The notes below the pieces were generated by a model. The model saw nothing but the letters and a program-made list of their open reading frames with translations, had not been told where the DNA came from and did no database searches. From NCBI GenBank assembly GCA_947373115.1, contig CANBWJ010000128.1, positions 1 to 61,008 on the forward strand: DNA of 61,008 nucleotides, in the 5' to 3' direction. Origin of the DNA: Opitutia bacterium. Its GTDB lineage: Bacteria; Verrucomicrobiota; Verrucomicrobiia; Opitutales; UBA953. The position numbers and the translations under genes were made by a program. This document shows, in pieces, positions 6,684 through 9,838 of this stretch (within the stretch, counting starts at the first letter, position 1; each line of letters begins with the position of its first letter).

Positions 6684-6901
6684 CCCACCTTCTCCCATCT
6701 CAGATCAACGGAATGTTCGGGCCAGACGTGATTGACGGCGCCGCAATGCTCGCACGAGGCATACTCGTTGGTGTACTCATGCTCGACGTGGATGCGCCAC
6801 GCGCCGCGCCTGCGGATCTCGGCCTTGTATTGGAAGTAAAGCTCCCCCGCCGAGGTCCTCGTGCAGGCGCTGCACTTGAAGCTGATGGGCTCAAGGGGCA
6901 T
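6680..6901 (-). CDS. Zinc-ribbon-like small protein (73 aa)
   Basis: Track ORF 6680..6901 with CSAC...CEHC Cys pairs. Confidence 0.55.
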   Translation of the reverse strand: MPLEPISFKCSACTRTSAGELYFQYKAEIRRRGAWRIHVEHEYTNEYASCEHCGAVNHVWPEHSVDLRWEKVG

Positions 6902-7118
6902 CGTCGAGGGCCTTGACGATCACCGCGTCGATCTCCGAGCTGAAGCGGTCGCGGCGGTTGTTGATCTTGGCGATCTCGTGCAGCGCGTCTTCCAACTGTT
7001 TGTTCCTGACCTTGTAGCCGACAAGCTCAAGGTTCAGTCGCATGACTTCGCTCTTGAGCTGGTCAATCCATGCGTTCTGCTCGTTGAGCATCTTCTGGAC
7101 CCGCGAGGCTTCAGTCAT
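6891..7118 (-). CDS. Small coiled-coil protein (75 aa), last member of tandem array
   Basis: Inner ATG (MTEASRVQKML...) inside the conserved junction CTGGAGGGGGAAGATGACTGA, which overlaps the upstream stop. Confidence 0.55.
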   Translation of the reverse strand: MTEASRVQKMLNEQNAWIDQLKSEVMRLNLELVGYKVRNKQLEDALHEIAKINNRRDRFSSEIDAVIVKALDDAP

Positions 7119-7371
7119 CTTCCCCCTCCAGTGAGTTGCGGGCAAACTTCCTGATTTCTTCAATTGTCTGGTGTGGATCAGCGATGCTAATCGGATACCA
7201 TGCGTAGATATGCGTCAGCGCCGCCTCCAGCTTCTCAATGTGGATGTTCAAGATGCCGTTTCCAACCAATAGGTTGGCACAGCGATTTTCCAGATGCTCG
7301 ATGCGGTCGGCGGCCTCATCTAATTCAGCAATTCCTTCGGCGCGCAGCCGCTCTACAAGATCATCAGTCAT
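7111..7371 (-). CDS. Paralogous small protein (MTDDLVERLR...LEGEDD), 86 aa
   Basis: Inner ATG of track ORF 7111..7401. Shares LVERLR, AADRIE.LE and a terminal LEG(K/E)DD with its neighbours. Confidence 0.6.
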   Translation of the reverse strand: MTDDLVERLRAEGIAELDEAADRIEHLENRCANLLVGNGILNIHIEKLEAALTHIYAWYPISIADPHQTIEEIRKFARNSLEGEDD

Positions 7372-7588
7372 CTTTCCCCTCCAATAACAGATCCATTTCA
7401 TGCGCGATCATGTGCGGTTGATAGCCAAGCGGCGTTTCATTGCGATACCTCCGCAGCGCCGCCTCCAGCTTCTCGATGCGGGCTGCGGCATCAAATGCGT
7501 TGCGGCATTGTTCTTCGGCCCCACAGGGGGTGCTTGAGAAATTACAACTGCAATTATTACGCAGCCGCTCCACAAGATTATAGGTCAT
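7364..7588 (-). CDS. Paralogous small protein (MTYNLVERLR...LEGKDD), 74 aa
   Basis: Inner ATG of track ORF 7364..7729, in the conserved junction. Confidence 0.6.
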   Translation of the reverse strand: MTYNLVERLRNNCSCNFSSTPCGAEEQCRNAFDAAARIEKLEAALRRYRNETPLGYQPHMIAHEMDLLLEGKDD

Positions 7589-7883
7589 CTTTCCCCTCCA
7601 GTGCTTTGCGGGCGACGGCGCGCATAGAGCGCGATACCGCGCAACATTCCCATCCGTCACATAGATCCAACAGCGCCGCCTCCAGCTTCTTGATGCGGTC
7701 AACATAACCATCGCTGTCAAGATCAGCACGGCTATTCAACCGAACATTGGCCGCGAAGAGAACGCCGTTTTCTTCCACCAGCTTCTCGATGCGGTCGGCG
7801 GCTTCCCCGTAAACCCACGGATGATAAACGGCGCTATCAATATCAGCATAGCAGCGCAGCCGCTTCACAAGATCATCAGACAT
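7578..7883 (-). CDS. Paralogous small protein (MSDDLVKRLR...LEGKDDL), 101 aa
   Basis: Inner ATG of track ORF 7578..7916. Contains two RI(E/K)KLE segments. Confidence 0.6.
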   Translation of the reverse strand: MSDDLVKRLRCYADIDSAVYHPWVYGEAADRIEKLVEENGVLFAANVRLNSRADLDSDGYVDRIKKLEAALLDLCDGWECCAVSRSMRAVARKALEGKDDL

Positions 7884-8064
7884 CGAAGTTCTCCCCCTCC
7901 GTATATTCGACTTCAATCTTCAAACGCGCGACAGGCTTTGTTGGGCGGATGTTCGCCCAATAGTCTGCGGCCTTCTTGAGCATGAACGCTTCAACATAAA
8001 CGTCATCTTTGCCTATGTTGATGTAGAGCGTCTTTTTGATGCGCTTAGGTGCGGGATCAGTCAT
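7876..8064 (-). CDS. Hypothetical small protein (62 aa)
   Basis: Inner ATG (MTDPAPKRIKK...) of track ORF 7876..8178. The start is embedded in the conserved junction. Confidence 0.55.
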   Translation of the reverse strand: MTDPAPKRIKKTLYINIGKDDVYVEAFMLKKAADYWANIRPTKPVARLKIEVEYTEGENFDV

Positions 8065-8242
8065 CTTTCCCCTCCAGTGCGGCGAGCGTCTCGGGCTTGA
8101 GGTAGCACCAATCTGCGCGAGATATGTATTGGGACATATCCACGAGCGCCAGCTCCAGCTTTTCGATGCGTTCTTCATCGACGAACATCTGCCTCGTCAA
8201 TTCATTGACAGCCGTGACTATCGCGTAAATTTCAGGCTTCAT
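8057..8242 (-). CDS. Small protein (61 aa) ending ...RIEKLELAL...LAALEGKDD; first member of array
   Basis: Track ORF 8057..8242. Overlaps the methyltransferase stop by 11 nt. Confidence 0.55.
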   Translation of the reverse strand: MKPEIYAIVTAVNELTRQMFVDEERIEKLELALVDMSQYISRADWCYLKPETLAALEGKDD

Positions 8243-9284
8243 CCAAGGTCTCCATCAGGGCTTTGACGACTTCCGCCGCGAGGGGCGCAACGATGGCGTT
8301 GCCGTAGGCGCGCAGCTTTCCCACTCGTCCGGGAACCCCATGAGCCAGCAAGGGAAGGCCGGGTTTAAGGCGCCGGGCCTTTCGGTCTGATCCTTCGACC
8401 CAGATGGCGTCGGACCAGAAAGATGAGCCGCGTCGATCAGGCTTGTGCCCGTGTGCGCGCCCCGAGCCTTCTTGGCCTCTGGTGTCTCCGGCGAACCCCG
8501 AGTGCTGTCTGTCGAGGTCGGCGTCGGCCATGTGGCCGCGTAAAGATGAATGGCCACGTCCGCCGTGCTTATCTGCGGATCGCTCCGCTTCCTGCCCTCC
8601 ATCACTGGCGGGCGCGACTTGGCCTCCACGACTGTGCTGTTGGGCGTCGGCCACGTCGTGATGATCTTCACGACGCCCGGCAGGCTGACGGTGACCTTCG
8701 TCCCGTTCGGGCGCCTGCCCGTCGCGCTTGCCTGCCCCATCCCATGCCCACCGTCCCCGTCCGCCTTCGTCGGTGTCGGCCACGTTGACGGCGCCCCAAT
8801 AGAGCCGCTGACGAATATGCGGGGCTCCAACCGCGAGAGCTGCGAGATCGAATGCCCCGCTGGCGTAACCTTCCGCCGCCAAGTCAGCTCGTACTCCATC
8901 GAGCCATCCGTACCCAGCCTTTCGCGCAACTTGTTCTCCCAGCACGACAGGGGGTCGGCAGGCGCGGATGAGGCGCCGGGCCTCTGGCCAGAGGTGGCGG
9001 GGGTCTGCTTCCCCGAGCCCTTTGCCCGCCTCGCTGAACGGTTGGCACGGGCAAGAGGCTGTCCAGACAGGGCGATGAGCTGGCCACCCCGCGAGACGTA
9101 GTGCTTGGCTCCATCCGCCGATCCCGGCGAAGAGATGGACCTGTTGAAATCCTGCAAGGTCGGAAGGTCGAATATCGACAATTGAGTGGGTGCAGACTTC
9201 ACCATCAGGGATTAATCCTTCCTTGATCAGGTTGCGCAGCCATTGAGCCGCATATGGGTCGATTTCATTGTAGAAGGAGGGCAT
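8232..9284 (-). CDS. DNA (cytosine-5)-methyltransferase
   Basis: Track ORF with FAGIGG (motif I), PCQPFS (IV), LGEQV (VI-like), HIRQRLYW (VIII) and LRAYGNAIVAP (X). The central ~120 aa are low complexity. See finding on the second frame. Confidence 0.8.
   Translation of the reverse strand: MPSFYNEIDPYAAQWLRNLIKEGLIPDGEVCTHSIVDIRPSDLAGFQQVHLFAGIGGWSQALRLAGWPAHRPVWTASCPCQPFSEAGKGLGEADPRHLWPEARRLIRACRPPVVLGEQVARKAGYGWLDGVRADLAAEGYASGAFDLAALAVGAPHIRQRLYWGAVNVADTDEGGRGRWAWDGAGKRDGQAPERDEGHRQPAGRREDHHDVADAQQHSRGGQVAPASDGGQEAERSADKHGGRGHSSLRGHMADADLDRQHSGFAGDTRGQEGSGRAHGHKPDRRGSSFWSDAIWVEGSDRKARRLKPGLPLLAHGVPGRVGKLRAYGNAIVAPLAAEVVKALMETLDEA
8255..9205 (-). other. +1-frame ORF (316 codons) fully inside the methyltransferase gene, carrying WPTP repeats and LNPAFPCWLMGFPDEW
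   Basis: Track ORF 8255..9205. WPTPT/WPTPN/WPTPT at aa 142, 185 and 225; LNPAFPCWLMGFPDEW at aa 280-295. I recall these motifs from phage cytosine methyltransferases. Status (dual coding, recoding or relic) is unresolved. Confidence 0.4.
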
Positions 9285-9838
9285 CAGATCGGCTCCTTAT
9301 GCAAACTCTCAAGGTAGGAGATGAGCTGCCATCCGCTAATAGCTTCCTTTGACCTATAAGGGTTCCCGTGGCGACTGATGCCCTCCTTGTTGGGGGGCAA
9401 CGTCACGGTCCCTAATTTCCTTTCGTTGATCAAACGTCTCAGTGACGTGGAGCCTATATTAAGAGCCTTTGCTACCTCCTGCGGCGTGTACAGGATGTCG
9501 AACCTAACGACGTTGCCGGTCAGCTCCTTGCGGCTTTTTTCAGCTAAGGATTTCCGTTTTTCATCCTCCAGTGCTTTGCGCTGCCTCTCCTCCTCCAGCA
9601 TCAATTGATTATGCCGGGGGCGCATGATGTTGTGCTTGGGCTTCTCTGCGAAAATCGCCTTGGCCTCCGCCTCAACTGTCTCCTCGCGCGTCTTGAAGTT
9701 TTCAATTTCGACGCGCGAGATGCTTTCGAACCAATGCGAATGGTCCTTGTGCTGCCCAAGACGATTGATCGCGCTCAGGGAAATCCCGATGTAGAGCAAG
9801 GCACCCTCTCGGTCGAAGTGCCTATACAGATGCGGCAT
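9284..9838 (-). CDS. GIY-YIG-like nuclease domain protein with C-terminal HTH
   Basis: LYRHFDREGALLYIGISLSAINRLGQHKD (GIY-YIG-like) followed by YTPQEVAKALNIGSTSLRRLINERKL (excisionase/MerR-type HTH). Confidence 0.5.
   Translation of the reverse strand: MPHLYRHFDREGALLYIGISLSAINRLGQHKDHSHWFESISRVEIENFKTREETVEAEAKAIFAEKPKHNIMRPRHNQLMLEEERQRKALEDEKRKSLAEKSRKELTGNVVRFDILYTPQEVAKALNIGSTSLRRLINERKLGTVTLPPNKEGISRHGNPYRSKEAISGWQLISYLESLHKEPI

Follow-up and report, generated by a model that had tools for sequence, protein, structure and literature searches.

Nested reading frames of the methyltransferase gene

The window analysed here is a 61,008-nucleotide (nt) stretch of DNA assigned to an Opitutia bacterium (contig CANBWJ010000128.1 of assembly GCA_947373115.1), and the subject of this report is a cytosine methyltransferase gene on its minus strand that can be read in two frames. 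Frame A (9284..8232) encodes 350 amino acids (aa), and frame B (9205..8255), which is shifted by +1 relative to frame A and lies fully within it, is free of stop codons over 316 codons and encodes 316 aa. The gene has a guanine and cytosine (GC) content of 64%. An initial annotation of the window had listed methyltransferase-like elements in both frames, and all of these were found in the sequence, on the minus strand.

The C5-methyltransferase motifs I, IV, VI, VIII, and X all lie in frame A. Its first 163 residues (8796..9284) form the catalytic domain, with motif I (FAGIGG, residues 52-57; 9131..9114), motif IV (PCQPFS, residues 79-84; 9050..9033), motif VI (GEQV, part of LGEQV at residues 115-119; 8939..8928), and motif VIII (PHIRQR, part of PHIRQRLYW at residues 155-163; 8822..8805). 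The catalytic domain is followed at residues 164-287 (8424..8795) by a spacer of approximately 120 residues of low complexity, rich in Gly, Arg, Asp, and His and punctuated by VADTD, VADAQ, and MADAD, which is kept open but is not conserved as a protein. The C-terminal element (residues 288-350; 8232..8423) has the pattern W..W..C.DGK.R, then RVG.LR.YGNAIVP, and contains the stretch LLAHGVPGRVGKLRAYGNAIVAP (residues 312-334), which includes YGNAIVAP and thereby motif X (GNAIV; 8303..8289). Nearly all of the frame A motif residues are invariant among 100 homologues, and the last V of GNAIV is conserved in at least 90% of them.

Frame B opens with an ATG (9205..9203) that stands 10 nt downstream of a Shine-Dalgarno (SD)-like sequence, AAGGAAGGA (9216..9224), read directly from the sequence. 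Residues 1-78 of B (8972..9205) constitute a leader that lies over motifs I-IV of A. Residues 79-141 (8783..8971), which lie over A motifs VI-VIII, are predicted to form a helix and a beta-hairpin (LSxWExxLRxRL...GSxEYxLTWKxxxTPxG). They are followed at residues 142-262 (8420..8782) by three WPTP modules of approximately 41-43 aa, with WPTPT at 8782, WPTPN at 8653, and WPTPT at 8530, which make up a putative target-recognition array. Residues 278-295 (GALNPAFPCWLMGFPDEW; 8321..8374) resemble motif IX (LNPxFxxWLMGFPxEW). They include LNPAFPCWLMGFPDEW (8368..8321), the nucleotides of which also encode KPGLPLLAHGVPGRVG in frame A, and TSGQ and ELTWRRKVTPAG are found further upstream in frame B. 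The remaining residues 296-316 and the stop codon (8255..8320) form a tail over A motif X that is not conserved as a B protein; in related loci, the B stop mostly lies 11-16 codons past the GN of motif X, with a range of 3-36.

When each frame was searched separately, both matched phage methyltransferase profiles. Frame A matched phrog_363 (E 2.6e-73) and, over residues 75-163 only, PF00145 (45.4 bits against a gathering cut-off of 22; E 9.5e-12), and M.HhaI aligned with its residues 73-163, which span motifs IV-VIII (E 3.5e-7). Frame B matched phrog_1008, 'DNA methyltransferase' (E 1.6e-27), and it matched no Pfam (PF00145 included), NCBIfam, or PADLOC model. Homologues of A number more than 8000. 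Those of B that have been called as proteins number 634, and a profile built from these 634 sequences matched 30,031 representatives of clusters formed at 50% identity at E<=0.001, 17,223 at 1e-10, and 8,017 at 1e-30.

A tblastn search with frame B also matched 198 phage records beneath annotated cytosine methyltransferase genes. In each case checked (BcepC6B gp33, Manatee Spring podovirus, cyanophage Cy-LDV1, Vibrio phage Vaitephage, and N15 gp58), the match was in the +1 frame of the annotated gene. Gene callers report A or B and seldom both, and in an independent ENA contig (L095; 40,423 bp) only B was called. The inner open reading frame (ORF) has nevertheless been annotated in K1ind2, where ORF29 ('C-specific methylase') contains the nested ORF28 ('Mte8-like protein'), and in Paenibacillus phage Diva, where gp49 contains gp50, labelled 'g49 internal gene'. 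No functional description could be traced for the 'Mte8-like' label, and our search of the literature on nested methyltransferase ORFs found no explaining paper or functional study. Paenibacillus phage genomics papers list two methyltransferase genes and make no remark on them, and this family is not mentioned in reviews on frameshifting and viral overlapping genes. A megablast comparison of 25 kb of the window with a phage collection revealed no close phage relative, and the sole match in the first 25 kb of the window was the 3' end of the gene itself (8250-8410; 80% identity to MW202483).

Constraint on the two frames

Stop codons were counted in 85 non-identical loci, comprising the window, six phage records, and 78 of the 80 loci fetched from IMG/VR, the other two being without the anchor motif. 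The GC content of the gene ranges from 47% to 69% among these loci, and expected counts were derived by synonymous recoding. Over A codons 40-160, frame B contained 6 stops where 183 were expected (100 by codon shuffling), and the third frame contained 351 where 370 were expected. Over the B module region, no stop was observed in frame A against 230 expected, and the third frame contained 353 against 357 expected. The alignment of homologous phage genes thus shows stop depletion in both coding frames and none in the third, so both frames are kept open. Frame B is open in 85 of the 85 loci, including the low-GC members Diva (47%) and L014 (49%), and the nested layout is also present in the isolated phages N15, BcepC6B, K1ind2, Diva, and Vaitephage. 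Indels that would merge the frames into one conventional ORF, an outcome considered in the initial annotation, are absent from the independent assembly L095, whose gene is identical to that of the window for its first ~940 nt and preserves both frames. The dual-frame layout is selectively maintained, and it is not the outcome of chance, sequencing error, or pseudogene formation.

A separate observation concerns the 3' end, where the L095 gene and the window gene show 19 mismatches, all within the last ~90 nt of the gene (window 8232-8330). This divergence suggests that a recombination breakpoint lies within the 3' end, where the gene is doubly coded.

Selection was mapped as nucleotide diversity by codon phase. 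A codons 0-103 exhibit a pure frame-A pattern, with a diversity of ~0.6 at third positions and ~0.2-0.3 at first and second positions; the B leader lies over these free third positions, and its constraint is to stay open and no more. Over A codons 104-165, the third positions of A are constrained as well and selection acts on both frames. The codon of A Val118 is GTT in 98% of the loci, which specifies Leu in B, and B Ser127 (97%) and B Trp134 (98%) are conserved where the A residue at codon 134 is variable. In the module region, related pairs mismatch at rates of 0.316, 0.150, and 0.095 at A phases 1, 2, and 3, respectively, which is a pure frame-B pattern.

At the 3' end, where we number positions from the GN of motif X, selection alternates between the frames. 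A-specific selection is found at W-38, W-33, D-G-K (-28 to -26), and R-24, and B-specific selection at L-N-P (-22 to -20), W-L-M-G-x-P (-15 to -10), and W-7. A-specific selection resumes at R-V-G from -8 and continues through Y-G-N-A-I-V to the gene end, and from -3 on the nucleotides of the B tail follow the frame-A substitution pattern. Across the loci, the motif IX-like residues of B are conserved at 94% (L), 96% (N), 100% (P), 100% (W-L-M-G), 97% (P), and 97% (W).

The signals at the start of frame B were also compared among the related loci. Stops in frame B are frequent up to A codon 37 and nearly absent beyond codon 42, and in ~80% of the loci the first B ATG past the last stop falls at A codon 26, 28, 30, 36, or 40. 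The anti-SD pairing energy 5' of this ATG averages -5.65 kcal/mol, compared with -3.37 kcal/mol at control positions (Mann-Whitney p=2.5e-15). In some relatives, such as N15, B starts only at A codon 92. Each frame is under its own purifying selection, and B possesses its own start signals.

Two further observations concern the 5' part of B. In five loci (L001, L003, L006, L022, and L023), the conserved Arg-Ser of A (codons 32-36) is written AGG-AGY, which uses a rare Arg codon. This spelling places AGGAG 8-9 nt upstream of the B ATG, and an internal ribosome-binding site is thereby accommodated in the synonymous sites of A. One B-like protein that apparently lacks the leader (P0083) is encoded at a contig end and is uninformative on this point.

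AlphaFold2 predictions divide the chains along similar lines. For A (100 sequences), the predicted local distance difference test (pLDDT) score was 70-84 in the N-terminal domain, below 35 at residues 164-287, and 36-72 at the C-terminus. For B (96 sequences), the score was below 50 at residues 1-79, 68-91 for a helix (residues 85-99) and a hairpin (residues 107-125), and low in the remainder. The parts predicted to be disordered (A 164-287 and B 1-79) are those that lack frame-specific selection. Neither predicted chain is confidently folded alone, which is compatible with an obligate partnership and is no proof of one.

The WPTP modules are a shuffled cassette array. Among 119 B proteins we counted 364 W-x-T-P modules, which fall into approximately 99 types when modules at least 55% identical in their first 24 residues are counted as one type, and the number of modules per protein ranges from one to six. 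Types are shared between proteins but arranged in different orders: the window has the order [0,1,2], P0012 has [1,0,13], P0005 has [6,1,0,7,5], and P0039 has [19,3,29,0,4]. The C5-methyltransferases of the Bacillus phages SPR, phi3T, and rho11s are multispecific and carry tandem target-recognising units of ~40-50 aa between motifs VIII and IX, and the number and order of these units vary between phages. Their arrays share both chain and frame with the catalytic core. The array of B resembles them in having tandem units between motifs VIII and IX, and differs in that it lies in frame B instead of the catalytic frame. We know of no relation between the WPTP modules and the Bacillus phage units. 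By analogy with these multispecific enzymes, we speculate that each WPTP module may recognise its own target.

The proposed two-chain enzyme and its alternatives

Relatives with other arrangements indicate which parts of an enzyme the two frames hold. In Mycobacterium phage IrishSherpFalk, the DNA methylase gp71 is a single chain; its alignment with A covers residues 71-168 (E 5e-17), where motifs IV-VIII are homologous. Gp71 also aligns with B over 199-357 (E 2e-7), where the homology extends over the (L/W)PTP modules and LNPxFxEWMMGxPxGW; this part contains three LLPTP modules and LNPAFPEWMMGWPTGW, which aligns with the motif IX-like segment of B, and GNGVVPQ follows in the same chain. These alignments, together with the frame-specific selection, assign the catalytic core and motif X to A and the variable (target-recognition) region and motif IX to B, as parts of one enzyme type. 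In gp71, unlike the window gene, the modules and motifs IX and X lie in the catalytic frame, and only a 132-aa +1 ORF with the hairpin and one module is left. The A chain of the window lacks a target-recognition domain and motif IX: its interval between motifs VIII and X is the unconserved disordered spacer, and the array and the motif IX-like segment are found in B.

The same parts are divided differently in other actinophages. In the Gordonia phages Upyo and GordDuk1, A ends just past motif VIII and the +1 ORF contains the hairpin, the modules, and motifs IX and X. In Magnar, A contains motifs I-X and no module, and a 104-aa +1 ORF contains the hairpin and one LLPTP module. Since Upyo, GordDuk1, and Magnar split the same parts between two chains, they support a two-chain reading of the window gene. 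A +1 ORF that starts within the catalytic domain is common to all of the lineages examined.

We consider it likely that this is a case of dual coding in which A and B are the two subunits of one heteromeric cytosine-5 methyltransferase. The initial annotation had claimed that both frames hold genuine methyltransferase parts, and the profile matches, the stop depletion, and the selection on each frame bear this out. Genuine dual coding, the first of the three explanations it offered, fits the open frames, the frame-specific selection, and the separate start of B. Moreover, codons 104-165 cannot be read in both frames by one ribosome pass, and two products are therefore needed. Ribosomes initiating at 9284 would produce protein A, with the core (motifs I, IV, VI, and VIII), a disordered spacer of ~120 residues, and the C-terminal element with motif X, and the sequence of the spacer would be a mere by-product of frame B. 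Independent initiation at the internal SD sequence and ATG (9205, +1) would produce protein B, with its unconstrained leader, the helix and hairpin, the three WPTP modules, and the motif IX-like helix. A and B would then assemble, with B acting as an exchangeable target-recognition subunit, and the enzyme may shield phage DNA from host restriction. A role of the modules in specificity is likewise suggested by comparison of the sequences.

Several points weigh against this reading. We infer the translation of B and its assembly with A from comparative sequence analysis only. The motif IX/X part was not recognised at significance by Pfam or Protein Data Bank (PDB) sequence searches in any construct: in Pfam scans of hand-built A-B-A chimeras of the window gene and of the Diva gene, the PF00145 match was not extended into motifs IX/X. 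A PDB sequence search with a composite A/B/A C-terminus reached the C5-methyltransferase 3g7u at E 0.72, which is weak and not significant, and the same search with the pure A C-terminus matched no methyltransferase. The start of B usually lies ~80 codons 5' of its first constrained residue, for which we have no explanation. The monomer predictions are weak overall, with a mean pLDDT of 51 for A and 54 for B. Finally, the A and B segments are colinear with single-chain enzymes, and the spacing of K, R, L, P, M-G, and P across the A/B boundary (0, 2, 4, 6, 13-14, and 16) equals that of motif IX in M.HhaI (GKTRKLHPRECARVMGYP; M.HhaI sequence confirmed), which would be expected of a fused product as well.

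It is possible, though in our judgement unlikely, that B is translated and functional but independent of A, as a DNA-binding, regulatory, or anti-defence protein. Selection has been demonstrated for B itself and its partnership with A is deduced, its helix and hairpin have no counterpart in canonical C5-methyltransferases, and the absence of Pfam, NCBIfam, and PADLOC matches would suit a protein of this kind. However, the B modules and LNP..WLMG.P..W have aligned counterparts in a single-chain methylase, namely its variable region and its motif IX, and A alone presents a disordered spacer at the position of the target-recognition domain. The +1 ORF of Upyo and GordDuk1 includes motif X as well, a motif without function outside the enzyme.

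A programmed +1 shift after motif VIII and a -1 shift before YGNAIV, which would generate one conventional A-B-A methyltransferase, is improbable to a greater degree. The A-B-A order is colinear with the single chain of gp71, the spacing across the frame boundary is that of M.HhaI motif IX, and the composite C-terminus weakly matches 3g7u where the pure A C-terminus does not. However, B is stop-free from approximately codon 40, some 130 codons upstream of the junction, and A remains open through the modules; frameshifting requires neither. In addition, B has its own ATG and SD sequence, A- and B-specific selection overlap in codons 104-165, and the A/B/A alternation at the 3' end would raise the number of shifts needed to four in all. 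An X_XXY_YYZ heptamer suited to a -1 shift occurs at the B-to-A junction in 2 of 79 loci, and a homopolymer of at least 5 nt at the A-to-B junction in 5 of 79. No 0-frame stop lies past the supposed shift sites, and frame A runs to the gene end. The recoding proposed as a second option in the initial annotation is thus contradicted by the open frames, the overlapping selection, and the want of conserved slippery sites.

It is very unlikely that frame B goes untranslated and merely reflects the high GC content and the constraints acting on A. The gene is indeed 64% GC, and some conserved B strings are shifted A motifs (TSSPAS from HFFAGIGG, and TSGTSG from DERHLWP). Against this, the third frame contains the expected number of stops, the low-GC members Diva and L014 keep B open, and the module region evolves by a frame-B codon pattern. 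Synonymous sites of A are fixed in a manner that preserves B residues, and the modules have been reordered as units read in frame B. It is scarcely credible that the layout reflects an error of sequencing or assembly, or the decay of a pseudogene with two compensating indels found in the window alone: the sole recommendation of this view is the unusual appearance of the gene, and the same layout is present in 85 of 85 loci and in the isolated phages, with L095 identical over ~940 nt. Compensating frameshifts, the third option of the initial annotation, may still describe how the arrangement originated, as single-chain relatives exist; as an account of a defect they fail, for the layout is under selection in the 85 loci.

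The two-subunit reading can be extended to a bolder view, about which we are evenly divided. One enzyme fold may be written in two interleaved frames, with five segments (the core with motifs I-VIII, the module array, the strand W..DGK.R, the motif IX helix, and the motif X helix) alternating between two co-translated proteins and having moved between frames across phage lineages. B would then act as an array of combinable cassettes by which methylation specificity is determined and perhaps multiplied, and the family would be very large, ancient, and systematically mis-called.

Further observations were made on the arrangement of related genes. A +1 ORF over motifs VI-VIII is also seen in methylase loci of Mycobacterium and Gordonia phages (L087, L091, L092, and L094). 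As judged from ORF positions, the modules, motif IX, and motif X lie in frame A or B in these actinophage loci depending on the lineage, and GenBank annotates their +1 ORFs as fragments only, for example GordDuk1 gp29 and Upyo gp53. In the subfamily of the window, approximately 50 residues (A residues 1-50, 9135-9284; YYNEIDPYAAQWLRNLI..G.V..SI.DV) lie ahead of motif I and bear a resemblance to motifs II and III. The genes of phage Diva and podovirus ctgrD200 (L004 and L088) start at motif I, follow the usual order I-II-III-IV, and contain the nested +1 gene. The N-terminus may therefore be permuted in the window subfamily.

Known systems and neighbouring genes

Full nesting in the +1 frame is known from the lysis genes Rz and Rz1 of phage lambda, where one gene lies wholly inside another and the products act together; Rz1 is short and unrelated in origin to Rz. 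The window pair shares with it the complete +1 nesting and the proposed joint function. Unlike the products of Rz and Rz1, the window frames would be complementary pieces of one ancestral enzyme fold.

A closer parallel exists among methyltransferases. Experiments have established that the C5-methyltransferase M.EcoHK31I of E. coli HK31 is a heterodimer (Lee et al. 1995, cited from PMC2836561 and PMC3404938). Its beta subunit is coded wholly inside the alpha gene in another frame, and both subunits are required for activity; alpha contains motifs I-VIII as well as X, along with the target-recognition domain, and beta contains motif IX (PMC2836561; PMC3404938). Internal Met codons can serve as alternative starts of beta, the N-terminus of which matters for association with alpha (PMC2836561; PMC3404938). 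The window gene, in which frame A corresponds to an alpha-like subunit with the C5-methyltransferase core, is a widespread variant of the kind known from this one characterised enzyme. Compared by published description, the two share a second subunit nested in another frame, with motif IX in the nested chain and motifs I-VIII and X in the large one. They differ in that M.EcoHK31I has its target-recognition domain in alpha, whereas in the window the module array and an additional helix and hairpin lie in the nested frame B. The window overlap also covers 316 of 350 codons, which is almost the full length, unlike that of M.EcoHK31I, and the first ~78 residues of B appear unconstrained, in contrast to the beta N-terminus that is needed for association. 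Moreover, the window layout defines a very large phage family, whereas M.EcoHK31I is a single characterised enzyme.

Division of a C5-methyltransferase into two chains is known in other forms as well. M.AquI occurs naturally as two chains, and M.BspRI, M.HhaI, and M.SssI can each be reassembled in vivo from complementing fragments, including fragments that overlap or bear foreign tails (PMC3404938). As in the window, the two chains are split in the variable region after motif VIII. However, those chains come from separate or engineered genes, with motifs IX and X in the C-terminal one, whereas the window genes are nested and motif X remains in A. Upyo and GordDuk1, with IX and X in the second chain, match the M.AquI pattern, and the window does not.

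If the proposed arrangement is correct, few same-strand gene overlaps of tailed phages would match this one in length (316 of 350 codons) and in breadth of conservation, and the family would span phages of Proteobacteria, Firmicutes, Actinobacteria, and Cyanobacteria under the interleaved-frame view. Overprinting would here have redistributed the parts of one enzyme over two chains and not created a new function. The B family is large (17,223 clusters) but lacks a model in Pfam or NCBIfam, and only one of the two frames survives gene calling, with the result that phage methyltransferases are mis-annotated; predictions of specificity from frame A alone would be meaningless. The shuffled WPTP modules offer a testable route by which phages may diversify methylation specificity against host restriction. 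These modules might also lend themselves to targeted methylation as a naturally split methyltransferase scaffold, a use already made of M.EcoHK31I. Finally, lineages in which the same segment lies in A or in B constitute a natural experiment on the evolution of overlapping genes.

The genes on either side of the methyltransferase gene lie on the same strand. The upstream ORF (9284-9838, minus strand) encodes 184 aa with a GIY-YIG-like N-terminus and a helix-turn-helix (HTH)-like C-terminus, and its counterpart in L095 shows a faint match to PF12728 (HTH_17). The stop codon of this ORF and the methyltransferase start overlap in the sequence TGATG, a hint that the two genes are translationally coupled. 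Directly downstream, at 6891-8242 on the minus strand, lie approximately five tandem small paralogous ORFs of 61-121 aa that share the motif RIEKLExAL. Each ends in ...LEG(K/E)DD, and the next starts with ...WRGKMT(D/E/Y)..LV(E/K)RLR, so that the C-terminus of one small ORF and the SD sequence and ATG of the next seem to form one conserved junction.

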